The translations under genes and the position numbers were made by a program. A DNA stretch of 64,000 bases from Paludibacteraceae bacterium (GTDB lineage: Bacteria; Bacteroidota; Bacteroidia; Bacteroidales; Paludibacteraceae): positions 16,388 through 80,387 of the forward strand of contig JAFXPK010000051.1 in assembly GCA_017527905.1 (NCBI GenBank). Direction: 5' to 3'. Of this stretch, positions 2 to 42,576 are shown piece by piece (within the stretch, counting starts at the first letter, position 1; each line of letters starts with the position of its first letter). The notes under the pieces were generated by a model that had not been told where the DNA came from, did no database searches, and worked only from the letters and a program-made list of their open reading frames with translations.

Positions 2-3000
2 ATTCCTATCCGAGAAGTAATAATAGTTCAGCAAAGAGGTATCGATCGTATTCGCCAGATGAATATATTTAGAGATTTCGATCTCCTCCCCGCAGGTCTG
101 CGGCAAAGCGTCGACCTTGATCTCCGGGTTAGGGAAGACCGTCACCTTCACCTCCGCCTTAGTGCTGAGCACACCATCAACCTTATGCTTCTGCGCCACC
201 TTGTAGATCGTCACGCCGACCGTCTCCGTGCTAGGCACAGGGGCGGAAGCCAAAGGAGCGGCATAGTTATCTTCAGGGGAGAACCATTCCAGTTCGTAAT
301 CAATATCCTTGACCTGACCATTGTTCGTGTTAATGCTAGCATTGTTCTCCAACGAGACTGCTTTCGCATGGTGGCAATAGTTCATCGGGAAGGTGTTCGG
401 CATCAGCGCGTCGCTCAAGATAACCGTGATACGCACCGTGTCGCTCAAGCAGCCGCTCTCCTTATGACGTTGTTTGACGAAGTAGGTCAGTTTCACATCC
501 TTATTCTCTTCCCAAGTGTTATCCTTCTTAGGAGAAGGGTCCGTAGTACCCAATTCATTCAGCGCCTCATCGAACCATACCAGTTCATAGTCAGAGTTGT
601 CGGAAGCGGTGACTGCACTTGGGTCTTTCGTCAGAAGAGGATCGAAAGAGCCATCTGCCGCAGCCTCCGATTTCAGGTAATTCACGGAAAGAGAACCCGT
701 CGCAACAGGTACGAAGGTAGTCTTCACAGCGAACTTCGCCGTATCGCTCACGCAGAAACGTCCCGATTCAATCTCATAAGACTCCACCACGCCATACTGC
801 ACCACCGACGTCTGGGTTTGCGCCAACGGAACGCCCGTCACGCTCTGTCCGTCGACCGACCATGAGAAGGAAGACTTTCCTGCGTCGAGGGTGAGCGAAC
901 TGCTCTTCACCTGCAATTGTTCATACTCCTCGCCCTTGCAATACTGAGTGCGGTTCATCGAGATATCAGGAGCAGGGATCTCCACGATGGTCACCGTAAG
1001 CGGCACCTTACCGCTCTCGTTGGTAGGGTTACCCACCTCACGTTGGCTCACGTAGTAGGTTACGGCACCACCCTCGGAGGTATTAGGCGTACGGTCCGAC
1101 TCGGTAGTCAGCTCGTTGCCATCGGCATCGTAATAGACCACCTCCCAAGAGGAGTTGGAGTCCTTCACCTCACTGGCGGTGGCGGAGATTGGCTGCGCCA
1201 CATCATTCAAGCAGTAAGTCACATGATTCGGGACAGGCACGGAGCTACCGCTCACGGTAACAGTGACATAGAACGTATCGCTCACGCAACCCACAGGTTG
1301 GGTGCGATTCACGCCATAAACGATCTTCTTGCCGACATCCTGTGGCGTCGGGGTCGGAGCACTAGACAAAGGTTGACCGTTCTCGTCAAACCAGTTGTAA
1401 GTATATCCGCTCTCCACCTCAACAGCGGAAGGGTCTTGCAGAAGGATGTTCTTATCGAATTGTCCGTTAGCGGCGGTATCGCCCAAGAGATAAGAGACAG
1501 CGCCCGTACCCGTAGGGGCAGAGATTTTCCTCACGGTAAACTTCAGCGTACCCTTTTTCCTGCTCTCGCAACCAGACTTGGAAGTCAATGAATAGGTGTA
1601 GGAGTAGTCGCCCGCCTCAGTTATGGAATTAACGTCCGGTGCGGTTGTCGGGTCTCCGTTCGAGTCGAACCAAGAATAGGCAACGTCCTTCGATAGCATT
1701 TCGTTCATCTCCCTCTCCAGGTCAGAGACATCCGCGTTGCCGGGGCAGAAAGTACCCAGGTCGTAATCAGAGACGACCGGCAGTTTCTCCACCACCAAGG
1801 AAACGACAGGAGCAGGGGAATAGCAAGATGAGTCAGGGCGGGAAAAGACACTTGCCGTATACTCAAATGTGCCAGCGGCGATCGGAGTCACCACACAAGT
1901 GTTATTGGAGGTCTGTTCCGAAATAGGCTGACCATTCTCCTCGAACCTGTAAGTTATATTATTACCGACAGGGCCGGCGGTCAATGTGACAGACTCGCCA
2001 GCACATATCGTATCCCTAGAGATTTGCATAGTAGTATTCGGGAGCGGGCAGTCCTCACCGCAACCGCTGACAGCCTGCGACATGATCTCATTATCCTTGT
2101 GTCCGAGGAGTTTTGTGTAGGCAACATTGATGATGGATTCGGAGCAGTCATCAACCACACCCTTCCAAGAAACCGTATACTTCTTTCCGAAAGGGATAGG
2201 GTTATCGATTCCCTGTTCAAATTTCCAAACGATGGAATCGCCCTGCAGCGCACCTCCATTATCAGCAGAAGAGAAACTAACCTCCGCAGGCTTACGGTCA
2301 ACGATGGTTAAGTCGTAAGCGTAGTCGGTGTGGACATTAATATTAGAGAAGGAAGAAGAACCATTCGACGGAGACTTAAATCCGAAGTAGCCATCTTTCT
2401 CTGTCAAGCCAGAAATAGAAAAGGCAGGTTCTACGGAAGTGTTCTTTGCAATCCAAGCCCGCAAAACATCACCATTCAACTCAATAATCATGTGGAAAGA
2501 ACTCTCTTTCAAAGACAAATTCACATTTTTAAGCAGTCTTGTCTTATCATACATATTAATCACAAGAGCGGCACCTCCATCATAATTCGGGAAAATACCC
2601 AATCGAAGATCATCTCTGAAGTAAACGATTGCCTCCGCATCTCTTTCACTATTTCCCCTATTCAGATCACAGTCCATAGAAACTGTAATATTTGTAGATT
2701 TCGAATACTTGAATTCAGCACTTGCGCCATTCGACAATGAAATCGTCCCATTGGAAATTCTAGGAGATCCACCAGACGTAGTCCAATCAGAAGAATTTGA
2801 CCCCGCATTCTCAAACAAAGCGCCATGAGTCTGTTCATATTCTATTTCATAAACGATATCATCGCCGACCTCATATCTCTCCTTATCCGCAACCTTTTTC
2901 ATTGTGGTTGGCACTATAGGATCAGGCACCTTTTCACAGGTAACAATGATTTGAGCGGTGTCATCCACAGCAGAATTCCTCAGTCCTGAGATCCAAGCAT

Positions 3001-6000
3001 GATTTACTATAACCTCATCAGCCGATACACACGATGCGCCGGAAGGGAATTTAACAACAGCATTATACTTAATTGTTCCTTTCTGACTCACCTGCATCTT
3101 CGGCACATGCCACTCTATAACATCACGGCCATCAGAAGTCTTTGTGGTTTTTATCGTAGCGCCAAAATCCTCAAGAGGGCAGTCATTTAAGAACGAAACG
3201 AACTCCAGACCCAAAGGCAAAGTGTCGCGTACATATACATCCTCGACATCACGGCCAGCGATAGGACCATTACCAAGGATCCTTCTCCACACATATCCGT
3301 CATATTCCTCAACCAACACATTAGGCACTGTAATGGAAGATGATGTACATCCGCAAGTCAACCATTTAGTAATAGGTTCCTCAATCGTTTTCCCCGATTC
3401 GTCTAATCTTTGCCAAGAAGGAGTGATTGGGTAATAATTACCTTCGTCACCGTCTTTATACTTTTCGCTAAATGACCAGTCATCCGTCCAATCCACTTTA
3501 TCCGAGTAATTATTACCATTAACAAGATTAACCACACGCAACGGATAATCTCCTCCCTCATGAATTGTACAATTAGGGTTACCCGTATTCCACGACGTAA
3601 GCATCGTAGTAGTGACAAGCAGTGGTGCGAACTGCATGGAAATACGTTGATTCCACTTCCTCCCAGTAACAGAATCCGTACCCGAGACCACATTCTCATG
3701 CGTCACGACAAATCCCTCTTTGTTACCACCTTCGTAAATTGAAGGAATAACAGCCCATCCATCAGATGAATTTGGAGAAACAACACCTGTCACAACAGGA
3801 TCGTATAAATAATAAGAAATACGATAGTTCCCATAATTTATATACGACTCAACCGCATCGTTAAACAGTCTGAATTTCACTCCCATTTGATTACCCTGAT
3901 CCTCACAAGCCCACGAAACATTTACTCTAGGACGTCCACCGTCTATCCATCCAGCCTCGGAGGAATTCTCAAAATCAATGCTAAAGGTAGCCACATTACC
4001 TGGGTTGATTTTATCCCTATCCGCCTTTTTTTCAATCACCAAAGAACGTTTCAACACATCAACGCAATTTCGTTGCATAGTTGCTGTTCTATAATTCGGA
4101 TATTCATTAGAAACCCATCCCAGACCATTTGAGCATGTTATTTCCGCCGTAGTGCAATAACGACCAGATGCCTGACTACCAATAGACACCGTATAAGACA
4201 CTTGTCCAATCGTTTTCTTAAAATTAGCCCTAGTCACATCCAGCGCAGCACCTTCCTCCTTACCATCGCTATGATAACCACTCACATCACCAATATTCCA
4301 CGTAATAGTATGACTTGCAGCGTCATATACGCCACCGCCCGTAGAAACGACATCAAAATGAGCAGGGACATGTTCTACGATGACCACATCCTTCGCATCC
4401 ACGGACCCATAATTACGGTAATCCAATAAATATGTTATTTCATCTCCTGTATAACAGAATGTCACACTATCTTTTATCGCCCTATAAATCTTCATGTTAG
4501 GCATTGGATTCATTGCGCTTGGCGCAGGATAATTACCCGATGTCACCATCATACCCATTTGACGAGCCCAGCCATGCATATAATTGGAAACTTTACCCAA
4601 ATTACACTCTTGTCCTCTCGGGACATCTATATCAGTGGCATCTCCTTTCGTGTCCCACTTAATATTACACTCTCTATATACCAAACCCATCAATTCATAA
4701 TCCTGACTTCCTACAGCCGCATAAGAACCCGTTCCAGTCTGCATACTCAAAGAGCAATAAAAATCAGCTCCCGACTTTCCCGTATTTGGATCATTTTGCC
4801 AACGAATCGTAGCAGGCCCAGAATAAGGCATATTCTTTACAGATCCATAATCAATACAATGGTTGCCGGCGGCAGGATTCCAATTCGACGGGTCATTCAT
4901 CCAATCCGACAATCTCACAGCGGCATCATACTCGTAAGTGTTTCCGCCTTGCTCCACCTTATGAGTCTTAGAGTTCCACGAATAGCTTGGATTTCCATGC
5001 CACATATAGTTACATATTGTTCTCCAAGAACATCGATAGTCCTCTCCTTGATTGAAATTACTAAATTCGGTACCTGCTTCCGTAGCTTTATAGCTCACCA
5101 ACACGGAATCTTTTTTCCCATCGTCATCATACGTGAATTGCCAATAGCTCACATTCTCTCCCGATTCGAAGACAGAGACCCAACCTGCTGTAGGAATTGA
5201 TTTAGAGCTTTTCTTTATCAACTCGCCTATGAGCCAATCAGATGAGGCTTCTCCTCTACGGAACTGTTCAATCTCCCATGGATCACCCCCCAACTCCTCA
5301 AACAGCTCATAAAATTCCCTGAAATATGCAGGCGCATTGTAATCTATGTGTTGAGTAGTCGCTCCACAAAATTCAGGATATAAGGTGAGTCCGTTTACAT
5401 CCACCATATTGTTACCCGGCAAGCTATATATCTCTTTCGACTCAGAGAAAACAAGAGGATTATTCGCAGTCACAAAACCAGTTTGTTCATTCCACGTATC
5501 ACCGCCCTTAGGATAACCATCCAAACCAATCATACCTGAATTAACACGCATAGGGTTTTCCGTTGGGAACCTTGTACTCAAAGCCACCAGTCCACGAATC
5601 ACTTCTATCATAGCCTCCTTGTACGATATCGGATTTCCACAAGCATCGTTTACGATAGCCCCAGACTCGTCTCTCATGAACTCACCCCACTGTTTGTAAG
5701 CAACATACAACGCTAAAGCAACATCCACATCACCATCCGCAGCCGTATTGCCACCCTCACCTCTATCGGACAACGCAAATGGTCCATACGCATAGGTTGA
5801 AGCAGTGTTCGAACAATCCCTATACTTCTTGGAGCGATTCAGACGCTTATCGTGCGTACACATCCAATAACCATTGAACGTAACCTGATCCGCCATATAA
5901 GCCGCAGCCAACAAAGCGTACCCATCACCTTCCGTACAATCATATGCAGATTTATACGGCGTGCTTATATATTTGATTCCTGCCCAAGACTCTCCCGTAT

Positions 6001-6262
6001 ATTTAAACTCATTAGCATGGACTTGATAGGCATTTCGTATATCCTGCTCCATCTCCGCATGCACCACACCCTCTGGGTTTCTAGTAGCCAAATTGCCTAA
6101 TCGATGGGAGTCTCCATAGGCATACTCCAAAAACTGCGGGAACGGATACGCCGGGTTACCTGAATTGATATGCACAGGCACCGCACTCACTCGAATTGCC
6201 GCCACCATCAACAGAGACAATAGCGCAATCAGCCTTTTATGAATAGTTATAAAGCGAACCAT
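2..6262 (-). CDS. Partial giant secreted protein (3' end beyond window): signal peptide + GH8-like catalytic domain + DUF11-type repeat + LamG-like module + Cys-containing Ig-like repeats
   Basis: This ORF is absent from the supplied track because it has no in-window stop. Manual reverse translation from the ATG at 6262-6260 gives MVRFITIHKRLIALLSLLMVAAIRVSAVPVHINSGNPAYPFPQFLEYAYGDSHRLGNLATRNPEGVVHAEMEQ. That is the same mature N-terminus as the two paralogs downstream. I spot-checked the frame at 6262-6000, 4250-4200, 3415-3400, 2314-2300 and 178-2 and found no stop. GH8-like motifs present: TEGDGYALLAAAYM and AADGDVDVALALYVAYKQWGE. The last in-window residues read KVTVFPNPEIKVDALPQTCGEEIEISKY. 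Confidence 0.8.
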   Translation of the reverse strand, partial: MVRFITIHKRLIALLSLLMVAAIRVSAVPVHINSGNPAYPFPQFLEYAYGDSHRLGNLATRNPEGVVHAEMEQDIRNAYQVHANEFKYTGESWAGIKYISTPYKSAYDCTEGDGYALLAAAYMADQVTFNGYWMCTHDKRLNRSKKYRDCSNTASTYAYGPFALSDRGEGGNTAADGDVDVALALYVAYKQWGEFMRDESGAIVNDACGNPISYKEAMIEVIRGLVALSTRFPTENPMRVNSGMIGLDGYPKGGDTWNEQTGFVTANNPLVFSESKEIYSLPGNNMVDVNGLTLYPEFCGATTQHIDYNAPAYFREFYELFEELGGDPWEIEQFRRGEASSDWLIGELIKKSSKSIPTAGWVSVFESGENVSYWQFTYDDDGKKDSVLVSYKATEAGTEFSNFNQGEDYRCSWRTICNYMWHGNPSYSWNSKTHKVEQGGNTYEYDAAVRLSDWMNDPSNWNPAAGNHCIDYGSVKNMPYSGPATIRWQNDPNTGKSGADFYCSLSMQTGTGSYAAVGSQDYELMGLVYRECNIKWDTKGDATDIDVPRGQECNLGKVSNYMHGWARQMGMMVTSGNYPAPSAMNPMPNMKIYRAIKDSVTFCYTGDEITYLLDYRNYGSVDAKDVVIVEHVPAHFDVVSTGGGVYDAASHTITWNIGDVSGYHSDGKEEGAALDVTRANFKKTIGQVSYTVSIGSQASGRYCTTAEITCSNGLGWVSNEYPNYRTATMQRNCVDVLKRSLVIEKKADRDKINPGNVATFSIDFENSSEAGWIDGGRPRVNVSWACEDQGNQMGVKFRLFNDAVESYINYGNYRISYYLYDPVVTGVVSPNSSDGWAVIPSIYEGGNKEGFVVTHENVVSGTDSVTGRKWNQRISMQFAPLLVTTTMLTSWNTGNPNCTIHEGGDYPLRVVNLVNGNNYSDKVDWTDDWSFSEKYKDGDEGNYYPITPSWQRLDESGKTIEEPITKWLTCGCTSSSITVPNVLVEEYDGYVWRRILGNGPIAGRDVEDVYVRDTLPLGLEFVSFLNDCPLEDFGATIKTTKTSDGRDVIEWHVPKMQVSQKGTIKYNAVVKFPSGASCVSADEVIVNHAWISGLRNSAVDDTAQIIVTCEKVPDPIVPTTMKKVADKERYEVGDDIVYEIEYEQTHGALFENAGSNSSDWTTSGGSPRISNGTISLSNGASAEFKYSKSTNITVSMDCDLNRGNSERDAEAIVYFRDDLRLGIFPNYDGGAALVINMYDKTRLLKNVNLSLKESSFHMIIELNGDVLRAWIAKNTSVEPAFSISGLTEKDGYFGFKSPSNGSSSFSNINVHTDYAYDLTIVDRKPAEVSFSSADNGGALQGDSIVWKFEQGIDNPIPFGKKYTVSWKGVVDDCSESIINVAYTKLLGHKDNEIMSQAVSGCGEDCPLPNTTMQISRDTICAGESVTLTAGPVGNNITYRFEENGQPISEQTSNNTCVVTPIAAGTFEYTASVFSRPDSSCYSPAPVVSLVVEKLPVVSDYDLGTFCPGNADVSDLEREMNEMLSKDVAYSWFDSNGDPTTAPDVNSITEAGDYSYTYSLTSKSGCESRKKGTLKFTVRKISAPTGTGAVSYLLGDTAANGQFDKNILLQDPSAVEVESGYTYNWFDENGQPLSSAPTPTPQDVGKKIVYGVNRTQPVGCVSDTFYVTVTVSGSSVPVPNHVTYCLNDVAQPISATASEVKDSNSSWEVVYYDADGNELTTESDRTPNTSEGGAVTYYVSQREVGNPTNESGKVPLTVTIVEIPAPDISMNRTQYCKGEEYEQLQVKSSSLTLDAGKSSFSWSVDGQSVTGVPLAQTQTSVVQYGVVESYEIESGRFCVSDTAKFAVKTTFVPVATGSLSVNYLKSEAAADGSFDPLLTKDPSAVTASDNSDYELVWFDEALNELGTTDPSPKKDNTWEENKDVKLTYFVKQRHKESGCLSDTVRITVILSDALMPNTFPMNYCHHAKAVSLENNASINTNNGQVKDIDYELEWFSPEDNYAAPLASAPVPSTETVGVTIYKVAQKHKVDGVLSTKAEVKVTVFPNPEIKVDALPQTCGEEIEISKYIHLANTIDTSLLNYYYFSDRN

Positions 6263-6481: not shown

Positions 6482-6523
6482 AAAAAAAACGTGTCGACAA
6501 ACGGAGAACCGTTTGTCGACACG
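6482..6523 (-). terminator. Rho-independent terminator of the 6548-12913 gene
   Basis: A perfect 15-bp stem (cgtgtcgacaaacgg / ccgtttgtcgacacg) is followed on the minus strand by a run of 8 T. Confidence 0.8.
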
Positions 6524-6547: not shown

Positions 6548-9500
6548 CTAATCCTTTACAGCCTTCACCATCTTTTGGTCACCGACCACGTAGACGCCAG
6601 GCATCAAACCGTCAAGCGCCTTTTCTCTCAAGACTTGCTTCTTCAGCATGATACCCAACATGTTGTAGACATCCACATATGGGCTTTCCGATGCCACGGA
6701 AGGCAACGAAGTAGCCTCCTTGACGTAAAGCACCAACGGAGCGGAGTTGACAGACTCCTTGTCGCTCGTGACATGGCTCGCGCAACGAATCGTATCCGAC
6801 TCGGTCGCCACCACCCTACACAGGTAAGAGAAGCTGTTCTTCTCGCCCGTATTCATACTATTCAACGTGTAGGTCACGATACCCGAATAGTTCTTAGCAC
6901 CATCAGGCAGAGCCTTGGCAGAAGCCTCAGCGCGTCCGTTTGGACGAGGATTCGTCGTGGCGCTTGCAGGTTGGTATGTCGCGGTTGTGTTCTCATCCAT
7001 GAACTTAACGAACTCGAAGCCCAACGTGATGGTATCTGTCACCGTGACACTCTTCGCCACAACGCCCTTCAGCGGACTATCTCCGAGGATCTTACGCCAT
7101 GTGTATCCATCGAACTCCTCCACCAAAACATTTTCCGTGACCGTCGACACCTCTTCACAAGCCGATTTCATAAGACGGTCCACCGGTTGAGGTTCCTCAG
7201 AAGATTGATAGGAAGGAGTGACAGGGTAATAATTTCCATTCTGCTCATCCTGCGGGATCTGAGAGAATCCAGTTCCCCAATCGATATCATTATAACGAGC
7301 ATCATTGGTATTAATCACCACCCGCATAGGGGATCTTGGTCCATCATACAAAGGAGAGGAGAGACCAAAATGCGACGACAAGAAGGTTGTAGAAGCGGCC
7401 TGCACATGAGGGAATTGGATAGTACGCATGAATGAGCTATCCGCCAGCATCTCATCCTTAAAGACGATCCCGTTTCCTGAAGGCAAGCCCTCTGAGAATT
7501 CAACCATATAACTCAAATCGACAGAACGCGACGTGTCACCGAAGAAGAGGTCAGCAGGAATCGTACGATATTTGCCATTGAACACTGTTATACGATAGTT
7601 GCCATAATCGATAGGTTCCACCGCATCATTATAGAGTCTCAACATCAAAGTGCTCATTGTCTTATCTTTCTTTTCCGCCAATGCCACATTCACGCCCAGA
7701 CGACCGCCCGTCAAAGCAGGAACGGTATCATTCGAAAGACTGACATTGAAGGTGACGAGATCACCCGCGGCAACCTCCGTGACATCCGAAATCTTCGCTA
7801 CCGACAGGTTGGTAGGGATCACGTCGACAGCGTTGCGCTGCATCGTCGCGGTGACATAGTTAGGATAACCATCCGTCTTCGATCCCACGCCATTGGAGCA
7901 GGAGATCTCCGCCGAAGCCTGGTAACGACCCTTCGCATCCTCCTTCGCCACGCAACGGTAGCTAACCTCACCGATTGTCTTTGACAAGTTCGGTGCGGAG
8001 AAGTCGATCGAAGCGCCCTCCATCTCATCGCTCTTGAAACCAGCGAGCTTGCTCAACGTCCACGCCACCGTATGGGTCGCGGCGTCATACTTTCCTCCGT
8101 TGTCCGCATCCAAGAAGATGAAGCCGTCAGGCACGCTCTCCTCGATGAGAACGTTCTGCGCATCCACGGAACCGTAGTTACGGTAAGAGAGCAGATAGGT
8201 GATTGTATCACCGACATGGCAGTAAGAGACGCTGTCCTTCACCGCCCTATAGATCTTCAGGTTAGGCTGAGCCTTCATTTGGGAAGGTGCGGCATAGTTG
8301 CCAGTGAGCGCCATCAATCCCAATTGGCGGAACCAACCCTCCATATATCTTGGAACAATCCGACCGTCGCGCGACTCCTCTGCCACATCACAACTTTCGT
8401 AGATGGCACCGAACAAGTCGCCCATCAAATCATAATCCTGACCACCGATGGCCGCAAAGGAGAAAGCGCCCTTCTGGCGAACAAGCAAACTATATAGACC
8501 AACAGTGGATGCCGCTCCTGTCATAGGGTCTATCTGCAGGGACAATGTCTTTGGACCAGTGACAGAAAGATTGCTATTGCCATACGTCACACATGAATTC
8601 TCCGAAGTCCAGTGCGCAGGGTCACGCATGTAATCGGACAACCTTACCGCAGCATCATACTCGTAGGTATTGGTCTTGCTCTCCACCTGATGGGTAACCG
8701 GGTTCCATGAGTATGCTGGGGAACCATGCCATACATAATTGCTGATGGTACGCCAAGGCGTACGGAAATCTTCACTCGCATCAAAAGGAGAATACGAAGT
8801 CGTGTCGCCATTGTTGTTCACGGTATGCCAACCAGCAGTCGGCAGGGCTTTCTCATTTTTGCCGATCAGGTTACCTATCAACCAATCGGAAGAGGCCTCT
8901 CCGCGACGGAACTGCTCCGCCTCCCATGCGTTCGTCTCTCCCAACTCGCTGGAGAGAGAGTCCAGCAAATCGTGGAACTCCCGGTAATAGGCAGGGGCGC
9001 AATAGTCCGTATGTTGTCTTGTTTCACCGACAAATTCAGGAGTAACAGCAACACCACCGATCTGAATGTAGTTCTTCTCCTGGGATGCCCATTCCGTCAA
9101 CTCGTTCCATGTGTTGCCACCCTTCACATAACCATCCAGACCGATCAGACCCGAAACAACACGCATAGGGGTTTCCGATGGGAACCTCGTACTCGTCGCC
9201 ACCAATCCACGAATCACATTGATCATCTCCTGCTTATAGCTGATCGGTTCGCCGCAAGCGTCCTTGACGATTTCTCCCTTGTCGTTCCGCATGAACTCAC
9301 CCCACTGCTTGTAGGCGACATAGAGGGCAAGAGCCACATCGGCATCACCGTCCGCAGCCGAGTTGTCCGGATTATTATCTGAAAGGATAAGATCTCCATA
9401 CTGGGTGTTAGGCGCATTATCGGTACAATCCATGTAACGTTTCGTATGCACACGTCGTTTGTCATGCGTGCACATCCAATAGCCATCGAACGTCGCCTTG

Positions 9501-12500
9501 TCAGCCATATAGGCGGCGGCAAGCAACGCGTAACCATCACCCTCGGTGCAATCGTATGCCGCCTTATAAGGGGTCCAAATATATTTTATACCCTGATATT
9601 CTTCACCCGTATATGCGAACTCGTTCGCATGCAGCTGGTAGGCTTCGCGGATATACTTCTCCATCTCCGCATGAGAGACGCCCTCCGGAACGTTGGTTCC
9701 GAGGTTTCCACCACACGCATACTCCAAGAATTGAGGGAAAGGATAGGCAGGATTGCCTGAATTGATATGAACCGTGACAGGGTCGCCTTCCACCGGAACG
9801 TCCTTGAGTTTGAAAGTAGTAGATGACGGAGCGGAGTTAACCGACGCATAATTATCCGACGCATGGCTTCCGCGCCATACTAATTGTCCACTATTCGCCA
9901 CACATCTACATTTGTAGGAAAGGCTTACCTGAGAGGAAGAATCCTGGGAGAGTGAATAAGTCACAATTCCCGCATAAGGTTTACCCTCAGCCGGATGGTA
10001 CGTGGCGGAAGTGTTCTCATCCGTAAAGGAAACGAACTCAAAACCTAGCGGAACCGTATCGGTCAATGTCAGCAAGCCACCATTTCTCAAAGGGCTGTCG
10101 CCAAGTATCTTACGCCACACGTATCCATCAAATTCCTCCACCAAGACAGTTTCCGTGACATCCGACACCTCATCACAAGCAGAGCGGATATAACGGGTCA
10201 CAGGTTGTGACACACCAGAAGTTTGGAATGAAGGGGAAATTGGATAATATGCCCCCTCCGCATTATTTTCATCTTTAAGCAACTGAGAGAAGCCCGAGTT
10301 CCAATCAAACCCTTCTAAGGATGGAGAAACAACACTGAACCCAAATTCAAAATCCAGAGGAGCCCTTGTTCCCTCACATGAGAAATAATCGTCATCCCAC
10401 ATCTGTTCCAGATAACCCATAGAAGTGGCTAACGTATGAGGGAATTGGAGGGTAAACATGTAGGTGCTATCAGACAGCGTATCAGTCGCAAAGACAAACT
10501 CATCAACATTATCACATTTTGCTCGACCATTCTGCGTGCCATGAAGGTCACCGATAATTTTTCTCAACTCCACCACATCTTTCAAATCTTTAAAGAACGT
10601 GATTCTATAGTTGCCATTATCGATATATGGCTCCACCGCATCGTTATAAAGTCGGGCACGCATAATTAACTGATAATTCGATTCCATAGTTTTAGCCATC
10701 GTCACATTCACACCAGAACGACCGCCAGTCAAACAAGGGACCGAATCCATAGAGATGTTAACGCTAAACGTAGCGACATCACCCTTGGACAACTCCGACA
10801 CATCAACAGTCTTTGAGAGAGATATACCGTTCGGAATCACATCGATATGGTTGCGTTGCATCGTCGCCGTAACATAATTCGGGTAATCGTTTGTCTTCGA
10901 ACCCGAGCCATTGGAACAGGAGATCTCCGCGGTGGAGTGGTAACGTCCCTTCGCTCCGTTCTTCGCCACACAACGGTAGCTAACCTGACCGATCGTCTTC
11001 GAGAGGTTCGGTGCGGAGAAATCGATTGAAGCTCCCTCCATTCCATCGCTCTTGAATCCGGCGAGTTTGCTCAAAGACCATTTCACCGTATGTGTCGCGG
11101 CGTCATAAACTCCATCAAGGTCAGCATTCAAGAAATCGAAGCCAGCAGGGATGGTGTCAACAATAACAACATTCTGCGCATCTACGGAACCATAGTTACG
11201 GAAAGAGAGGAGATAAGTGACCGTGTCACCCGTATGGCAATATGACATGCTATCCTTCACAGCCTTATAGATCTTCAGGTTTGCCTTCGGATTCATTTGG
11301 GAAGGGGCGGCGTAGTTGCCCGTCAATGCCATCAAGCCCATCTGGCGGAACCAGCCACGCATATATCTAGGGATCAATTGACCATCATCCGATTTCCCTT
11401 CTATCAGCATGTTTTCATAGATAACATTGTAGAGGTCACCCATCAAATCATAATCCTGGACGCCAATAGCAGCAAAGACAGAGGCGCCCTGCTGCATACA
11501 ATCATGTCTCCCGTAGAAATCTACCGGTTCACCCGTTATCGGATTATTTAGCAAAGGCATCGCTCTTGGTCCTGTATATGGAATATTACAAGGAGCAGGG
11601 GATGCTGGTGTAACGCAAACAGATTTGTCGGTCCAGTGCGCAGGATCACGCATGAAATCGGACAACCTCACCGCCGCATCGTACTCGTGGCTATTTGATC
11701 CATTCACAACCTGATGGGTAACCGGATTCCACGAATAGGCAGGGTTGCCATGCCATACATAATTGCTGATAGTACGCCAAGGAGTACGGAAATCCTCACC
11801 CGTGTTAAAAGAAGAATACGAAGTCGTGTCACCATTTTTGTTCACGGTATGATTACCTGAAGTAGGCAGAGCCTTATCGCTTTTACCGATCAAGTCACCG
11901 ATCAGCCAATCGGAAGAGGCCTCTCCACGGCGGAACTGCTCCGCCTCCCATGCGTTCGTCTCGCCCAACTCGCTGGAGAGGGAATCCAGCAGATCGTGGA
12001 ACTCCCTGTAATAGGCAGGCGCACAATAGTCCGTATGTTGTTGCACCCCACCAGCAAATGCAGGAATGATATTTACACCATCCATCTGGATGTAGTTCCC
12101 CTCTTGGGATGCCCAATTCGTCAACTCGCCCAATGTGTTACCACCTTTCACGTAACCATCCAAGCCTATCAAACCCGTAATAACCCTAAGAGGATTCCCC
12201 AAAGGAGAGAGTGTTGAATCAACAGACGCCTTCACCAAGCCGCGGATCACATTGATCAACTCCTGCTTATAGCTGATTGGCTCGCCACAAGCGTCCCTGA
12301 CAATTTCGCCCTTATCGTTACGCATGAACTCACCCCACTGCTTGTAGGCGACATAGAGAGCGAGGGCTATATCGACATCTCCATCCGCCGCAGAGTCATA
12401 ACTTCCTCCGTTACCATCTTTGGGGGATATACCAGCAATGGTGAATTCTCCAAAACGGTAGTCAGGCACATTATCAGTACAATCCTTGTATCGTTTCGTG

Positions 12501-12913
12501 CGCACACGACGTTTGTCATGCGTGCACATCCAATAGCCGTCGAACGTCGGTTTATCAGCCATATAGGCGGCGGCAAGCAACCCATAGCCGTCCGATTCGG
12601 AAAATTCAGCATAAAAAGGCTCGGCTAACTCGATATATTTTATACCCTCATGCTCTTCACCCGTATACGTGAACTCAAGCGCATGCTGCTGATAAGCCTT
12701 ACGGATAAAATGCTCCATCTCCGCATGAGTGACACCCTCCGGGTTCTTGGTACCTAAGTTTCCGCCACACGCATACTCCAAGAACTGAGGAAACGGATAG
12801 GCGGGATTGCCTGAATTGATATGGACAGGAACGGCGCCCATACTAACCGCTGCAAAAAACAGGAGAGGCAAAAACGCGATTGCCCTCTTTTTAATACTTA
12901 CAATAAAGACCAT
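6548..12913 (-). CDS. 2121-aa secreted protein with two tandem [GH8-like + DUF11-type repeat] units and one T9SS C-terminal sorting domain
   Basis: The track ORF is 6548-13174. I place the start at the ATG at 12913 (MVFIVSIKKRAIAFLPLLFFAAVSMGAVPVHINSG), which gives a signal peptide. GH8-like motifs occur twice: SESDGYGLL/TEGDGYALL, AADGDVDIALALYVAYKQWGE, DYCAPAYYREF, EDFRTPWRTISNYVW and GWFRQ.GLMALTGNYAAP. DUF11-like segments: GDTVTYLLSFRNYGSVDAQNVVIVDTIP. The C-terminus (PYVDVYNMLGIMLKKQVL...GVYVVGDQKMVKAVKD) resembles a T9SS CTD. Confidence 0.85.
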   Translation of the reverse strand: MVFIVSIKKRAIAFLPLLFFAAVSMGAVPVHINSGNPAYPFPQFLEYACGGNLGTKNPEGVTHAEMEHFIRKAYQQHALEFTYTGEEHEGIKYIELAEPFYAEFSESDGYGLLAAAYMADKPTFDGYWMCTHDKRRVRTKRYKDCTDNVPDYRFGEFTIAGISPKDGNGGSYDSAADGDVDIALALYVAYKQWGEFMRNDKGEIVRDACGEPISYKQELINVIRGLVKASVDSTLSPLGNPLRVITGLIGLDGYVKGGNTLGELTNWASQEGNYIQMDGVNIIPAFAGGVQQHTDYCAPAYYREFHDLLDSLSSELGETNAWEAEQFRRGEASSDWLIGDLIGKSDKALPTSGNHTVNKNGDTTSYSSFNTGEDFRTPWRTISNYVWHGNPAYSWNPVTHQVVNGSNSHEYDAAVRLSDFMRDPAHWTDKSVCVTPASPAPCNIPYTGPRAMPLLNNPITGEPVDFYGRHDCMQQGASVFAAIGVQDYDLMGDLYNVIYENMLIEGKSDDGQLIPRYMRGWFRQMGLMALTGNYAAPSQMNPKANLKIYKAVKDSMSYCHTGDTVTYLLSFRNYGSVDAQNVVIVDTIPAGFDFLNADLDGVYDAATHTVKWSLSKLAGFKSDGMEGASIDFSAPNLSKTIGQVSYRCVAKNGAKGRYHSTAEISCSNGSGSKTNDYPNYVTATMQRNHIDVIPNGISLSKTVDVSELSKGDVATFSVNISMDSVPCLTGGRSGVNVTMAKTMESNYQLIMRARLYNDAVEPYIDNGNYRITFFKDLKDVVELRKIIGDLHGTQNGRAKCDNVDEFVFATDTLSDSTYMFTLQFPHTLATSMGYLEQMWDDDYFSCEGTRAPLDFEFGFSVVSPSLEGFDWNSGFSQLLKDENNAEGAYYPISPSFQTSGVSQPVTRYIRSACDEVSDVTETVLVEEFDGYVWRKILGDSPLRNGGLLTLTDTVPLGFEFVSFTDENTSATYHPAEGKPYAGIVTYSLSQDSSSQVSLSYKCRCVANSGQLVWRGSHASDNYASVNSAPSSTTFKLKDVPVEGDPVTVHINSGNPAYPFPQFLEYACGGNLGTNVPEGVSHAEMEKYIREAYQLHANEFAYTGEEYQGIKYIWTPYKAAYDCTEGDGYALLAAAYMADKATFDGYWMCTHDKRRVHTKRYMDCTDNAPNTQYGDLILSDNNPDNSAADGDADVALALYVAYKQWGEFMRNDKGEIVKDACGEPISYKQEMINVIRGLVATSTRFPSETPMRVVSGLIGLDGYVKGGNTWNELTEWASQEKNYIQIGGVAVTPEFVGETRQHTDYCAPAYYREFHDLLDSLSSELGETNAWEAEQFRRGEASSDWLIGNLIGKNEKALPTAGWHTVNNNGDTTSYSPFDASEDFRTPWRTISNYVWHGSPAYSWNPVTHQVESKTNTYEYDAAVRLSDYMRDPAHWTSENSCVTYGNSNLSVTGPKTLSLQIDPMTGAASTVGLYSLLVRQKGAFSFAAIGGQDYDLMGDLFGAIYESCDVAEESRDGRIVPRYMEGWFRQLGLMALTGNYAAPSQMKAQPNLKIYRAVKDSVSYCHVGDTITYLLSYRNYGSVDAQNVLIEESVPDGFIFLDADNGGKYDAATHTVAWTLSKLAGFKSDEMEGASIDFSAPNLSKTIGEVSYRCVAKEDAKGRYQASAEISCSNGVGSKTDGYPNYVTATMQRNAVDVIPTNLSVAKISDVTEVAAGDLVTFNVSLSNDTVPALTGGRLGVNVALAEKKDKTMSTLMLRLYNDAVEPIDYGNYRITVFNGKYRTIPADLFFGDTSRSVDLSYMVEFSEGLPSGNGIVFKDEMLADSSFMRTIQFPHVQAASTTFLSSHFGLSSPLYDGPRSPMRVVINTNDARYNDIDWGTGFSQIPQDEQNGNYYPVTPSYQSSEEPQPVDRLMKSACEEVSTVTENVLVEEFDGYTWRKILGDSPLKGVVAKSVTVTDTITLGFEFVKFMDENTTATYQPASATTNPRPNGRAEASAKALPDGAKNYSGIVTYTLNSMNTGEKNSFSYLCRVVATESDTIRCASHVTSDKESVNSAPLVLYVKEATSLPSVASESPYVDVYNMLGIMLKKQVLREKALDGLMPGVYVVGDQKMVKAVKD

Positions 12914-12960: not shown

Positions 12961-12968
12961 CAAATATA
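12961..12968 (-). promoter_or_regulatory. -7 box TATATTTG (minus strand)
   Basis: caaatata lies 48 nt upstream of the ATG at 12913. This supports the shorter start. Confidence 0.55.
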
Positions 12969-13164: not shown

Positions 13165-13197
13165 CAAAAAACAATCAGCACCCATAAGGTGCTGATT
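13165..13197 (-). terminator. Rho-independent terminator of the 13247-16489 gene
   Basis: A 10-bp stem (aatcagcacc / ggtgctgatt) is followed on the minus strand by gtttttt. Confidence 0.65.
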
Positions 13198-13246
13198 GCA
13201 TTTTAATTACAAAAGGATTTACCGCCCACGGCAAAATTTCCACGGA

Positions 13247-16200
13247 TTACTCCTTGTCATTTTTTATCATCTTCTTGTCACCGACCACATAGACGCCCGG
13301 CATCAATCCCTTCAGCGCCTCTATCTCGAGAACATGCTTTCTCACGAGAACGCCTAGGCTGTTATAGACATCCACATACGGATTGTCCGACGGCACAAGG
13401 GAGACCCCTGTAAACTCTTTGTCGACAATGATCAACGATGCGGAGCTGACTGACTCCTTGTCGCTCGTGGCATGGCTTCCGCATGCGATCTTTTTGGCGT
13501 CACCTCCTACATACTTGCATTGATAGGAGAATCCATCCTTCGTGCCCAAGTCCATGCTTCCCGCGGAGTAGGTCACAATACCCGCATAAGGCTTACCATC
13601 AGCAGGTTGGAACGTCGCAGAAGTTTTCTCGTCCGTAAACTTGATGAACTCGAAGCCCAACGGAATGGTGTCGGTCACCGTCACATTCTTCGCCACATCA
13701 CCGTTCACGAACGGGCTATTGCCAAGAATCTTACGCCACACATAGCCATCGAACTCCTCCACCAAGACATTCTTCGTGAGTTTCGACACGCCGTCGCAAG
13801 CCGTCCGCAAGAGGCGGTCCACCGGCTGAGGCTCCTCCGAGGATTGGTAGGAAGGCGTGACAGGGAAATAATAGCCGTCGTCACTGTCAGAATTCAACTG
13901 GGAGAAGCCCGCTTTCCAATCGAGGGACTTCCAACTAGCGTCATAGAAACGAGCCCCCACACGCAACGGGTACCTTGTCCCCTCGCAATTGAACTTAGCG
14001 GCTCCGGCCATCTCGTTCAGGTAATAAGTGGAGGCAGCCAAAGCATGAGGGAATTGCACGGAGAACATACGGGTGCCATCCGCCAAGACCTCATCCTTAA
14101 AGACAAAATCGTTTGCGTTCGAAGCCATCGTCGCACCATTCTGCGTGCCCTCGATCAGGTCGAACGAGCATTGGAGGTCGGTCGCGTCCTTCAAATCCTT
14201 GAAGACCGTGACACGATAGTTACCATTGTCGATGTAAGGCTCCACCGCATCATGGTAGATCTTGAACTTCAGGACATATTGCGCGCCCTTCTCCTCGTCG
14301 GCCACTGCCACGTTGACGTCCGGTCGTCCGCCCGTCAGCCAAGGAATCGTGTCGTTCGAGAGGTTCACGCTGAAGGTGACGACATCGTTCTTCTCCACCT
14401 CCGTGACATCCGACGTCTTCGTGACGGTGAGGTTCGTAGGGATCACCTCAATCAGATTGCGCTGCATCGTCGCCGTGACATAGTTCGGGTAGAGGTTCGT
14501 CTTCGAGCCCAATCCGTTGGCGCAGGAGATCTCAGCGGTGGCCTGGTAGCGACCAGCCGCGCCGCTCTTCGCCACGCATCGGTAAGAGACCGTCCCGATT
14601 GTCTTCGAGAGGTTCGGAGCGGAGAAATCGATCGCCTCGCCCTCCATATTATCGCTCTTCAGACCCGCCAATTGGTCCATGGTCCACGTCAACGTATGGG
14701 TCGCGGCATCGTACGTTCCGCCATTGTCCGCATCCAAGAAATAGAAATCGGTCGGCAACTTCTCAACGATAACGACGCTTTGCGCATCCACAGAACCATA
14801 GTTACGGTAGGAGAGCAGGTAGGTGATGGTATCCCCCACGTGGCAGCAGGACATGCTATCCTTCAGCGCCCTATAGATCTTCAGGTTAGGCTGAGCCTTC
14901 ATTTGGGAAGGCGCAGGATAGTTGCCCGTCAAGGCCATCAAACCCGTTTGACGGAACCATCCGCTCATATAGTTGGAGACCCATTGTTTATCGGTTGTTT
15001 GACCTTTGGCGTCCCAGTTCTCGTAGATCACATTGAACAAGTCGCCCATCAGATCATAATCTTGTGCACCGATTGCGGCGAAAGCGGCGGCGCCCTTCTG
15101 CATACCCAGTGCGGAAGTGTTCGCGTCATCGAGGGTAGCGCCCGTCATCGGATCGATCTGCCAACCCATCATCCTCGGGCCCGAATAAGGGATTTTCTTA
15201 TCACCCTTCGTGTAGCAAGTGGATCCGGATCCCCAATGGGCAGGGTCGCGCATGTAGTCGGACAATTTCACAGCCGCATCGTATTCATATTTGTTCGCAC
15301 CCTCCTCGACTTGGTGGGAGACCGGGTTCCAAGAGTAGTCCGGGTTTCCGTGCCAGACATAGTTGCTGATGGTACGCCAAGGGCAACGATAGTCCTCACC
15401 ATCCTGGAAGTTGGAGTAGGTGGTTATGCTACCGTCACGGTTACAAGTGTTCCAGCCAGCGGTAGGCAAAGAGGTTTTGTTCTTACCGATCAGATCACCG
15501 ATCAGCCAGTCGGAAGAGGCTTCGCCACGGCGGTATTGCTCAGCCTCCCACTCCGCGGTGGCACCGATCTCATCCTTCAGGGAAAGGATCAGGTCGTGGA
15601 ACTCACGGAAATAGGCGGGCGCGCAATAGTCGATATGCTGGCGTTGTCCGCCATCCGAAGCGAACAGAGGATAGACAGGAACACCATTCCATTGGATGTA
15701 GTTGCTCTTCTGCAAAGCCCAGTCCGTCAACTCAGCCCAAGTATCGCCACCCCTCATATAGCCGTCCAGACCGATCAGGCCCGTATTGACGGGGCGAGGG
15801 TTCATCTCAGGGTTACTGGTGCTCATCGCCACCAGGCCACGCACCACATTGATCATCTCCTGCTTATAGCTGATAGGGTTTCCGCAAGCATCCTTGACGA
15901 TCTCACCCTTATCGTTCCGCATGAACTCGCCCCACTGCTTATAGGCGACATAGAGTGCGAGCGCCACATCGACGTCACCGTCCGCCGCCGTGTTGCCGCC
16001 CTCGTCCGCACCGTCACTGATGGCGAATTCACCATACTGATAATTAGGCGCATTATCGGTACAATCCTTGTATCGTTTCGTATGCACGCGACGTTTGTCG
16101 TGCGTGCACATCCAGTAGCCGTCGAACGTCACCTTATCCGCCATGTAGGCGGCGGCCAACAAAGCGTAGCCATCGCCCTCGGAGCAGTCGTAGGCGGCCT

Positions 16201-16489
16201 TGTAAGGGGTCCATATATATTTTATGCCCTCATACTCATCTTTCGTATATTCGAACTCATTCGCGTGCTGTTGGTAAGCCGTACGGATGAGCTGCTCCAT
16301 CTCGGCATGGGTCAGGCCCTCCGGGTTATTCGTTCCCAGGTTTCCGCCACACATATACTCCAAGAACTGGGGGAAAGGATAGGCAGGATTACCCGAGTTG
16401 ATATGGACAGGGACGGCGGCGAAGGAAGCCAACGTCCCGAAGCACAAACCGGCGCACAACGCCAACGATTTCTTTAGATAACGATTCAT
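13247..16489 (-). CDS. 1080-aa secreted GH8-like glycoside hydrolase with DUF11-type repeats and T9SS C-terminal sorting domain
   Basis: The track ORF begins at a GTG at 16498. The first ATG is at 16489 (MNRYLKKSLALCAGLCFGTLASFAAVPVHINSGNPAYPFPQFLEY). GH8-like motifs: SEGDGYALLAAAYM, AADGDVDVALALYVAYKQWGE, DYCAPAYFREF, EDYRCPWRTISNYVW and GWFRQTGLMALTGNYPAP. DUF11-like segment: GDTITYLLSYRNYGSVDAQSVVIVEKLP. CTD-like end: NPYVDVYNSLGVLVRKHVL...GVYVVGDKKMIK. Confidence 0.88.
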   Translation of the reverse strand: MNRYLKKSLALCAGLCFGTLASFAAVPVHINSGNPAYPFPQFLEYMCGGNLGTNNPEGLTHAEMEQLIRTAYQQHANEFEYTKDEYEGIKYIWTPYKAAYDCSEGDGYALLAAAYMADKVTFDGYWMCTHDKRRVHTKRYKDCTDNAPNYQYGEFAISDGADEGGNTAADGDVDVALALYVAYKQWGEFMRNDKGEIVKDACGNPISYKQEMINVVRGLVAMSTSNPEMNPRPVNTGLIGLDGYMRGGDTWAELTDWALQKSNYIQWNGVPVYPLFASDGGQRQHIDYCAPAYFREFHDLILSLKDEIGATAEWEAEQYRRGEASSDWLIGDLIGKNKTSLPTAGWNTCNRDGSITTYSNFQDGEDYRCPWRTISNYVWHGNPDYSWNPVSHQVEEGANKYEYDAAVKLSDYMRDPAHWGSGSTCYTKGDKKIPYSGPRMMGWQIDPMTGATLDDANTSALGMQKGAAAFAAIGAQDYDLMGDLFNVIYENWDAKGQTTDKQWVSNYMSGWFRQTGLMALTGNYPAPSQMKAQPNLKIYRALKDSMSCCHVGDTITYLLSYRNYGSVDAQSVVIVEKLPTDFYFLDADNGGTYDAATHTLTWTMDQLAGLKSDNMEGEAIDFSAPNLSKTIGTVSYRCVAKSGAAGRYQATAEISCANGLGSKTNLYPNYVTATMQRNLIEVIPTNLTVTKTSDVTEVEKNDVVTFSVNLSNDTIPWLTGGRPDVNVAVADEEKGAQYVLKFKIYHDAVEPYIDNGNYRVTVFKDLKDATDLQCSFDLIEGTQNGATMASNANDFVFKDEVLADGTRMFSVQFPHALAASTYYLNEMAGAAKFNCEGTRYPLRVGARFYDASWKSLDWKAGFSQLNSDSDDGYYFPVTPSYQSSEEPQPVDRLLRTACDGVSKLTKNVLVEEFDGYVWRKILGNSPFVNGDVAKNVTVTDTIPLGFEFIKFTDEKTSATFQPADGKPYAGIVTYSAGSMDLGTKDGFSYQCKYVGGDAKKIACGSHATSDKESVSSASLIIVDKEFTGVSLVPSDNPYVDVYNSLGVLVRKHVLEIEALKGLMPGVYVVGDKKMIKNDKE

Positions 16490-28207: not shown

Positions 28208-28398
28208 AAGAATTAACGTTTCATAAATCCCTCGTGTCGCCCCTTCGGGGCTACGCCACATCACACGCACCATCACACAGGGGTTGACACCCCTGCCTAT
28301 GATATAATACCCCTTCGGGGCTTGGTTTACGCGCATCGTCTATGGACACGCACGCTCCCAAAAACTCTTAATTCTTAACTCTTAATTCTTAATTCTTC
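28208..28398. repeat. MITE/REP-like intergenic element, locus D
   Basis: The left end is aagaattaacgtttcataaa. The core has gtgtcgccccttcggggct, caggggttgacacccctg and a second ccccttcgggg. The right end is ctcttaattcttaactcttaattcttaattctt, which overlaps the stop codon of the GH9 gene. Confidence 0.7.
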
Positions 28399-30248: not shown

Positions 30249-30343
30249 ACTTACTGATTAATTAAATTAAATGTTTACGTTAATTATCCCCCATTTGGTG
30301 TCCTACTGATATACCCTAAATAAAGTAGACAACCATATACATA

Positions 30344-30351
30344 CAAATATA
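30344..30351 (-). promoter_or_regulatory. -7 box TATATTTG (minus strand)
   Basis: caaatata lies 96 nt upstream of the ATG at 30248. Confidence 0.45.
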
Positions 30352-30462
30352 CAATAATTTATTGGCTCACGCAATAACCTTGCGCATAATTTGACATGCG
30401 TCAATTTACGAATCTCAAAGAGGCAAGTGCCAAACGAAGCCAACCTAGTGCCTGGACAAACA

Positions 30463-30502
30463 TTGGGGGCATACGAATCACAGAAGATTCGTACGCCCCC
30501 AA
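30463..30502 (-). terminator. Hairpin terminator after GH9 copy B
   Basis: A 17-bp stem with one mismatch (ttgggggcatacgaatc / gattcgtacgcccccaa). The T-tract on the minus strand is weak. Confidence 0.5.
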
Positions 30503-30593
30503 CAATCAGTCACACAATTAAAAATCAGATGCTAAGGATTAAGAACACATTCGACATCTAACCTTCAAAAGATAACATCCAACGTCTAAAAAA

Positions 30594-42527: not shown

Positions 42528-42576
42528 ATTTGGCAATTATATTAGTTATCAATCTATTTTCCTATCTCTAAGCAGT

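Follow-up and report, generated by a model that had tools for sequence, protein, structure and literature searches.

The window analysed here, a 64,000-nt stretch of Paludibacteraceae bacterium DNA (contig JAFXPK010000051.1), carries at positions 6548–12913 of the reverse strand a single open frame of 2121 codons, in which two complete units, each a glycoside hydrolase family 8 (GH8)-like head followed by a beta-sandwich stalk, are joined head to tail. This fused gene can be regarded as genuine and inherited, because the same junction is found in many independent assemblies and in diverged orthologs. As a whole, the observations are best explained by a two-headed GH8-like protein, genuine and inherited, that is exported by a type IX secretion system (T9SS) and resides on the surface or is released, a reading to which we assign a probability of roughly 0.85. 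The Sec pathway would move the precursor to the periplasm, where T9SS would recognise the single C-terminal tail and carry the whole 230-kDa protein over the outer membrane, to be displayed on the cell surface or released. Its two heads, predicted to be inverting glycanases of GH8 type, would then be spaced along a rigid immunoglobulin (Ig)-like stalk, and the expected effect is a higher local enzyme or binding valency on insoluble plant or microbial beta-glycans.

An open frame from ATG to stop that is 20 codons longer is also present, and the start at 12913 is the one used by independent gene calls and by the orthologs. Alignment of the two halves with both neighbouring paralogs shows that unit 1 (residues 1–1047) and unit 2 (residues 1048–2121) are collinear. 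They share 65% protein identity over 991 aligned residues and 70% DNA identity at a direct-repeat offset of 3018–3054 nt, and the longest exact word common to both is 38 nt. Tandem Repeats Finder, with a maximum period of 500 nt, reported no repeat. Unit 1 is 63% and unit 2 67% identical in protein to the single-unit paralog directly upstream, and either unit is ~49% identical to a giant paralog downstream, giving four paralogous modules within 16 kb.

The two units are connected by a 13-residue linker, KLKDVPVEGDPVT (residues 1035–1047; 9773–9811, reverse strand), and the protein sequence at the junction is ...SVNSAPSSTTFKLKDVPVEGDPVTVHINSGNPAYPFPQFLEY. The tryptic peptide that crosses the surrounding stretch, ...KDVPVEGDPVTVHINSGNPAYPFPQF..., would be ~49 residues long. 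No methionine, signal peptide, stop codon, promoter-like site or terminator was found at the junction by inspection of the sequence and a terminator scan, and separate translation or export of unit 2 was rejected on these grounds. Nor does any word of 25 nt or more from 9740–9830 recur elsewhere in the window. The start of unit 2 lies 0–3 residues from where the mature paralogs are predicted to begin (A/VPVHINS, the slash marking cleavage). The stalk in the AlphaFold2 (AF2) model of unit 2 ends with the strand LVLYV, after which come a low-confidence linker and the tail, and unit 1 retains the equivalent strand (TTFKL; LTIRV in orthologs) and a short linker before PVT-VHINS. An earlier note on this DNA had described an in-frame, head-to-tail protein of 2121 residues with two collinear units offset by about 3.0 kb, unit 1 stopping roughly where the C-terminal domain (CTD) begins and unit 2 starting at the first mature residue. 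This description is borne out by the open frame, by two Pfam matches each for GH8 and DUF11/CLIPPER, and by the position in unit 2 that aligns with the end of unit 1, which lies in the disordered linker preceding the modelled tail; the junction had been read exactly.

Evidence that the frame exists outside this one assembly comes from several sources. Two recorded contigs encode the exact 2121-residue protein, full-length members of 2097–2135 residues from ENA, Logan and NCBI are found in its 90%-identity cluster, and a locus from a different assembly (L048) is 100% identical to the window across 12.4 kb. When residues 930–1160 were used as query, five clusters of 2131–2154 residues covered the junction fully, at 97, 75, 74, 71 and 71% identity, and every other match was to the head half only. 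All fused genes examined have a homologous junction that reads ...NSAP..PVT-VHINS, with variants such as ...SVNSAPLTIRVKGTAPVEGDPVT-VHINS, ...GTTPLKDVPVT-VHINS and ...GTAPVENVPVT-VHINS. Among orthologs, V, M or E occurs at one position of the linker and GD, NV or SV at another, and junction conservation is 0.82. The junction is also spanned by a 2.6-kb contig of an NCBI metagenome-assembled genome (MAG) from yak omasum, RGIG9770. Following a suggestion in the earlier note, three loci with the fused gene were compared. In two of them, L001 and L003, it stands in the gene order of the window (ornithine/arginine decarboxylase, metallophosphatase, HHH protein, Big_5 protein, WbqC, single-unit gene, fused gene, giant CHU_C gene, adenylosuccinate lyase). 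In the third, L002, the single-unit and giant genes flank a tandem pair of fused genes (2136 and 2131 residues; L002:1210-14374). Of the two possibilities that the note had raised, the genuine evolutionary fusion is thus the one supported, by a junction shared among independent assemblies and by orthologs that are 71–75% identical across it.

The protein is predicted to start with a Sec signal peptide, MVFIVSIKKRAIAFLPLLFFAAVSMGA (residues 1–27; 12833–12913, reverse strand), at a start codon given by the translation, used in the gene calls and conserved in orthologs. The segment has a KKR n-region, a 14-residue hydrophobic core and a small-residue c-region, a pattern read by eye that also suggests the cleavage site. 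The GH8-like head of unit 1 (residues 28–538; 11300–12832) is delimited by Pfam PF01270, a phmmer domain with the same bounds, motifs and conservation, and that of unit 2 (residues 1048–1544; 8282–9772) by PF01270, phmmer (domain 1045–1544), AF2 and Foldseek. The PF01270 score is 62.9 bits (cut-off 24), from two stretches, one per unit, which cover only profile positions ~47–141 of 341. The stalks, both of which include a DUF11/CLIPPER domain, occupy residues 539–1034 (9812–11299) and 1545–2066 (6716–8281), on the reverse strand like all features of the gene. PF01345 (DUF11/CLIPPER) reaches 92.8 bits against 24.6, again in two stretches, and TIGR01451 56.1 bits against 24. In unit 1 the stalk assignment derives from PF01345 at residues 546–620, the alignment to unit 2, and beta domains in a model that spans the junction; in unit 2 it derives from Pfam, AF2 and Foldseek. 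DUF11 has been renamed CLIPPER, a CnaA-like stalk domain of fibrillar adhesins, and many such domains are without an intramolecular isopeptide bond (bioRxiv 10.1101/2025.04.25.650565).

The AF2 model of unit 2 (pLDDT 89.4, predicted TM score (pTM) 0.85) shows a helical head of ~500 residues followed by a chain of beta-sandwich domains. In a Foldseek search, the best match to the head was the GH8 chitosanase 1v5c (TM 0.73), followed by CMCax 1wzz (0.65) and 6vc5 (0.60), and the remaining matches of unit 2 were to Ig-like stalks (PrgB, integrin legs, AgI/II). An (alpha/alpha)6 GH8 fold is therefore predicted for unit 2 by the model, and for unit 1 can be expected by homology at 65% identity. GH8 matches in a sequence search of the PDB were marginal, with a best E value of 0.002 and identities of 14–15%, and the alignments pair the GH8 acid motif SEGQGY with TEGDGY/SESDGY as well as the DGD motif (chitosanase 7cju, glucanase 5czl). 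From the motif positions, the putative catalytic residues are Glu106 (SESDGY), Asp177/Asp179 (AADGD) and Asp295 (HTDY) in unit 1, and Glu1124 (TEGDGY), Asp1188/Asp1190 and Asp1303 in unit 2. Among 48 diverse family members, including both units, the Glu of (S/T)E(G/S)DGY is invariant and the ADGD aspartates are nearly so. The Asp of the HTDY motif is also nearly invariant in the family, and Asp295 and Asp1303 are presumably candidates for the catalytic base, by analogy with the YDAxR motif of BcsZ-type enzymes. The PROSITE-style GH8 signature has no exact match in either unit.

At the C-terminus, a low-confidence linker (residues 2067–2078) precedes a tail of four strands in ~43 residues (residues 2079–2121; together 6551–6715), YVDVYNMLG...GVYVVGDQKMVK, which resembles a T9SS type A CTD according to AF2, TIGR04183 and hhalign. 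Pfam and NCBIfam scans of the last 76 residues gave no match to PF18962 and a sub-threshold match to TIGR04183 only. When the tail profile was aligned with the CTDs of other cargo proteins in the window, hhalign returned a probability of 92.9% (E 3.7e-7, 35 columns); TIGR04183 itself is passed by three of the five window CTDs scanned, from GH9 enzymes and others. The usual length of a T9SS CTD is 70–100 residues, and the tail of the fused gene is shorter. Elsewhere in the family, the C-terminal sorting domain is PF18962 in more distant single-unit relatives and PF13585 in giant ones. In the fused protein, two GH8 domains (residues 28–538 and 1045–1544) share a single N-terminal signal segment and a single C-terminal tail. 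This architecture agrees with the earlier proposal of one signal peptide and one CTD for two modules, with the reservation that the label CTD holds at the profile–profile level only and falls below the TIGR04183 cut-off.

As to the origin of the gene, every unit taken from a fused gene falls into a single clade (100/100), with the single-unit orthologs as its sister group, and in a tree of the GH8 part the unit 1 and unit 2 sequences separate, except for converted units of L002. Because the junction is common to all carriers and the fused units form one clade, the sequences indicate a single fusion event that started from a copy of the single-unit gene. A separate fusion in each lineage was considered and rejected, one homologous junction being present in all carriers. 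A copy of the single-unit gene would have gained its second module by one illegitimate in-frame recombination, with breakpoints in the linker before the C-terminal tail and in the first residues past the signal-peptide cleavage site. An internal in-frame tandem duplication of a 3.05-kb module is favoured, if only just, because it takes one fewer event and because no unfused intermediate was found: a three-gene arrangement of this kind is present in none of 41 species-representative genome loci or 33 metagenome loci.

The alternative route, in which two complete adjacent paralogs lost the first tail, the spacer and the second signal peptide of the pair through an in-frame deletion of ~0.5 kb, is a serious contender that we nevertheless consider somewhat less probable than even. 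The locus consists of tandem whole-gene paralogs and L002 has two fused genes, which shows that whole-gene duplication does occur here. Furthermore, the final stalk strand and some of the linker that precedes the tail are preserved in unit 1, and PV(T)V of the mature N-terminus in unit 2; these are the expected end points of such a deletion. Internal duplication, however, predicts identical end points, the deletion route requires an additional event, and the 41 genome and 33 metagenome loci all have the order single-unit to giant, or single-unit to fused to giant. The position of the unit 1 and unit 2 clade as sister to the single-unit gene fits both routes. The proposal in the earlier note that a CTD, a spacer and a signal peptide had been removed is accordingly compatible with the product, but describes only one of two routes, the 3.05-kb internal duplication being equally consistent.

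The fusion was followed by divergence, by a second duplication in one lineage, and by loss or prior absence in many sister species. Between orthologs, the ratio of nonsynonymous to synonymous substitution rates (dN/dS) is 0.23–0.27 for unit 1, 0.21–0.24 for unit 2 and 0.09–0.14 for the single-unit gene, and both units are by this measure under purifying selection. Of the 141 alignment columns in which at least 90% of 45 other family members agree, unit 1 has the consensus residue in 133 and unit 2 in 135, with eight and six departures, respectively, compared with one for the single-unit gene. The residues kept include the Glu of (S/T)E(G/S)DGY and the ADGD and TDY motifs.

Similarity between the units is not evenly distributed. 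Codon-aware sliding identity reveals a tract at 11632–12100, with its partner at 8608–9076, where the units are 80–93% identical in DNA, third positions included, and 60–72% identical to the single-unit gene; this is consistent with gene conversion within the fused gene. The pair 11900–12050 and 8880–9030, chosen in the earlier note as an example of collinearity, coincides with the most similar part (93% nt identity at 12031–11911 versus 9007–8887). In L002, the synonymous divergence (dS) between the heads within each gene is 0.14–0.18 compared with 0.94–1.08 between the two genes, and in the trees unit 2 of one fused gene (L002fA) groups with unit 1 sequences and unit 1 of the other (L002fB) with unit 2 sequences. 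The units evidently exchange sequence by gene conversion.

Two hypervariable patches occur at equivalent positions in both units, one in the GH8-like head (unit positions ~430–465) and one in the stalk (776–872). The corresponding coordinates are ~11620–11520 and 10585–10300 in unit 1, where the ortholog variability profile places the stalk patch at residues ~776–872, and 8575–8480 and 7535–7320 in unit 2. In the patches, mean pairwise identity among orthologs is 0.24–0.59 compared with 0.8–0.9 elsewhere, and they are probably located in loops exposed on the head and on one stalk domain. The unit 1 stalk of the window strain (9812–11299) differs from its orthologs by a dS of 0.9–1.3, above that of unit 2 or the single-unit gene, and in a FastTree phylogeny of the beta part it branches outside every other unit and single-unit gene. 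These sequences suggest either replacement by a divergent allele or very fast evolution.

A frameshift allele of the fused gene also circulates. It has a 1-nt deletion at window position 12036 (CAACAAC[A]TACGG; compare L045, L046 and L047 at locus position ~2810) and is found in seven contigs, representing three or more samples, that match the window at 100% over 11.3 kb apart from this deletion. The frame is thereby broken into open reading frames (ORFs) of 336 and 1765 residues, and most of the protein loses its signal peptide. The intact allele is present in the window, in L048 and in one NCBI record. Since the frameshift clone is seen in three samples, the fused gene is therefore dispensable in at least some settings.

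By their MAG names, the carriers are Paludibacteraceae from the ruminant gut. In most related Paludibacteraceae species, the single-unit gene is followed by the ~2800-residue paralog without a fused gene; among contigs from one GTDB genome per species, the single-unit gene directly precedes the giant gene in L006, L009–L011, L020–L022, L027, L037 and L041. Among species-representative genome loci, the fused gene is confined to two yak MAGs. One is RGIG9770, where L015 is the contig across the junction and L004 holds the C-terminal part of the gene, and the other is RGIG10174, where the start (L007) and end (L005) of the gene are on separate contigs. Because the flanking DNA of carriers and non-carriers alike is 84–90% identical to the window, the presence of the fused gene is patchy among related species. 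The closest relative of the window single-unit gene, L011, comes from a genome without a fused gene. A JGI metagenome scan with a junction-spanning query returned unfused loci only. Three loci that initially appeared to match the full query, L050, L052 and L053, were rejected as fused genes, each consisting of two adjacent genes.

A profile-free scan of 1.84 billion representatives gave 2436 family members at E ≤ 1e-3, and in the same scan a double full-length match to the single-unit query occurred in one protein only, the representative of the fused cluster (2950 bits). According to a local domain count, two heads occur in this lineage only among 255 family proteins gathered, a set that includes the best 150 of the 2436 matches. 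The spacing between the single-unit and giant genes in a UBA3844-like lineage (L050, L052 and L053 at ~4420–4461, and L010) is ~40 nt compared with 200–330 nt in the window group; the former value is taken from stop-to-stop ORF bounds, and the actual distance could be greater.

The N-terminal modules of the giant paralogs group differently from the adjacent single-unit genes (window, L001–L003, L006, L009, L010 and L020). In the window, the giant gene groups with UBA3844 and the single-unit gene with RUI231 and UBA1181. The discordance suggests recombination between species or allele exchange at the locus.

On a wider view, the locus might be a fast-evolving cassette system of cell-surface head-and-stalk modules, although we regard this as rather unlikely. 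Units of ~1000 residues would be duplicated in frame, converted or swapped, replaced, switched off by frameshift and lost between sister species, and the two-headed protein would be one state of strain-level variation that affects attachment, substrate specificity, or escape from phages or predators. Such a system would fit the locus because of the patchy presence, the discordant trees of single-unit and giant genes, the hypervariable patches, the conversion tracts and the recurrent frameshift allele.

With respect to function, the heads could instead be carbohydrate- or surface-binding modules, and the protein a bivalent fibrillar adhesin rather than a hydrolase. Stalks of the DUF11/CLIPPER type are a usual feature of fibrillar adhesins (bioRxiv 10.1101/2025.04.25.650565), the heads resemble characterised GH8 enzymes only very remotely, large GH8-containing proteins without a known role exist in Cytophaga (PMC6247017), and hypervariable patches are present. 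On the other hand, the acid Glu is invariant and the ADGD Asp nearly so in the 48 diverse members, as predicted of an active site, and the T9SS-type GH9 enzymes in the window fit a glycan-degrading lifestyle. A purely adhesive role is for these reasons judged improbable.

A real fusion may also be decaying or only partly functional, with one head, probably that of unit 1, serving as an inactive passenger or binding module, or with the whole gene being lost. Beyond the diverged unit 1 stalk and the frameshift allele described above, this would account for a dN/dS about twice that of the single-unit gene, a Gly-to-Ser change beside the catalytic Glu of unit 1, the lack of a conserved W–D pair there, and the absence of the fused gene from many sister species. 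But a dN/dS of 0.2–0.3 over ~1000 codons per unit amounts to clear purifying selection, the frames are open across lineages that differ by a dS of 0.5–1.3, and ~95% of family-conserved residues are kept in both units. The divergence, moreover, is found in the same two patches of both units and resembles diversification of exposed loops, and decay is accordingly a poor candidate for the gene as a whole. The weakest alternative, that two separate paralogous genes were misjoined or collapsed in assembly and that the 2121-residue frame has no cellular existence, can point to four paralogous modules in 16 kb and to a fused gene split over short contigs in two NCBI MAGs, a sign that assemblers struggle here, but is highly improbable, since a chimeric join could not be inherited, diverge and be duplicated, whereas the same junction comes from different assemblers and sources in at least ten contigs, orthologs are in frame across it with linker substitutions of their own, and the near-identical repeats assumed in the earlier note are in fact 70% identical in DNA, share no word longer than 38 nt and have no repeated k-mer of 25 nt or more at the junction.

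Several observations weigh against the reading of a genuine two-headed, T9SS-exported enzyme, or against parts of it. The GH8 assignment is remote, the catalytic role is putative and the subfamily is without a characterised member. The tail is only ~43 residues long and matches TIGR04183 with an E value of 0.051 and 13.6 bits against a cut-off of 23. The AF2 model across the junction (residues 531–1580) is of low confidence (pLDDT 67.7, pTM 0.47), and no confident contact between the units is predicted in it. Furthermore, constraint on the units is looser than on the single-unit gene (0.09–0.14), the deletion clone truncates the protein at residue ~292, and duplication and deletion would yield the same product.

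Upstream of the fused gene, TATATTTG (12961–12968, reverse strand) resembles the Bacteroidota -7 box (TAnnTTTG) and lies 48 nt upstream of the start codon, where it may act as a promoter. Downstream of the gene, a hairpin with a 15-bp stem followed by T8 (6490–6523, reverse strand), detected in the terminator scan, resembles an intrinsic terminator. The upstream single-unit paralog (13247–16489, reverse strand; 1080 residues; identified as an ORF with Pfam matches) has a terminator of its own at 13171–13199. Because terminators follow both the upstream gene and the fused gene and none is present at the junction, the fused gene is predicted to be its own transcription unit. On the other side, the giant paralog (2–6262, reverse strand) is cut by the window edge and, from its ORF and Pfam matches, has an N-terminal GH8-like/CLIPPER module followed by Ig-like repeats; its orthologs are 2800–2900 residues long and end in a CHU_C type B sorting domain. 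Tails that resemble T9SS type A CTDs are also found in proteins encoded at 28389–32468, 40482–44604, 51334–54978, 57729–60119 and 23207–24799, and the CTD-tailed proteins of the window include two tandem GH9 paralogs. The strain appears to use T9SS cargo rather than Sus-like loci in the window region, and these several CTD-bearing proteins hint, if indirectly, at T9SS machinery (PorK/L/M/N, Sov, PorU/V) in the genome.

The analysis shows that this long repeated frame in assembled metagenomic DNA reflects real biology, and that annotation as one gene is warranted. It offers a clean, datable case of growth of a giant T9SS cargo, in which a complete head-plus-stalk module was duplicated in frame, and one signal peptide together with a minimal tail of ~43 residues would appear to suffice for a two-headed protein of 230 kDa. 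Hundreds of Bacteroidota proteins belong to the subfamily that combines a remote GH8-like head with CLIPPER. The presence at one locus of single-unit, double-unit and giant versions, together with a frameshift knock-out, constitutes a natural experiment on the role of these proteins in fibre degradation.

The closest parallels are the multi-catalytic T9SS carbohydrate-active enzymes (CAZymes) of the rumen bacterium 'Candidatus Paraporphyromonas polyenzymogenes' (Ca. MH11), which include GH5-GH5, GH8-CBM6-GH11 and six consecutive GH5 domains (Naas et al. 2018, PMC5831590). As in the fused protein, these belong to uncultured rumen Bacteroidota, a single signal peptide and a single sorting domain serve two or more GH domains, and the genes lie outside a Sus-like polysaccharide-utilisation locus, beside tandem paralogs. 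Unlike these CAZymes, the fused gene repeats a whole module of ~1020 residues, head and Ig-like stalk, and not the catalytic domain alone, and it has a remote GH8-like head, an unusually short tail and, from MAG names, a Paludibacteraceae host. Large N-terminal-GH8 T9SS proteins, e.g., CHU_1075, CHU_2852 and CHU_3440/3441, are known from Cytophaga hutchinsonii and Sporocytophaga myxococcoides (Taillefer et al. 2018, PMC6247017); they are prominent in the Cytophaga and Sporocytophaga proteomes, with no role assigned (PMC6247017). They resemble the fused protein in that an N-terminal GH8 domain accounts for under half of a very large protein and is followed by Ig-like folds and a T9SS CTD. Cytophagaceae MAGs do encode members of the family of the fused protein. 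The fused gene falls under both themes, multi-catalytic T9SS CAZymes and large proteins with an N-terminal GH8 domain. The CHU proteins, however, have a single GH8 domain, and CHU_1075 is reported to be 32% identical to CelA and thus much nearer to classical GH8 enzymes.

In Flavobacterium johnsoniae ChiA, cited in PMC5831590, one T9SS cargo likewise combines two catalytic domains of the same family (GH18) with one C-terminal signal, but there the domains differ in function (exo/endo) and the CTD is of type C. The fused units, in comparison with those of ChiA, are recent paralogs that are still being homogenised by gene conversion. In analogy to classical GH8 enzymes (Bacillus sp. K17 chitosanase 1v5c, Acetobacter CMCax 1wzz and the BcsZ-type 6vc5), the modelled head has an (alpha/alpha)6-type fold (TM 0.60–0.73), a SEGxGY-like Glu and the Asp residues of a DGD motif, but sequence identity to them is 14–15% and the head, at ~500 residues compared with 320–390, has large insertions. 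Multi-catalytic T9SS CAZymes in rumen Bacteroidota are thus already known, and the importance of a further example is modest; what sets this one apart is the doubling of an entire head-plus-stalk module, from a remote and uncharacterised GH8-like subfamily, and the two-module form, which conversion, duplication and loss continue to reshape, is confined to one small lineage.

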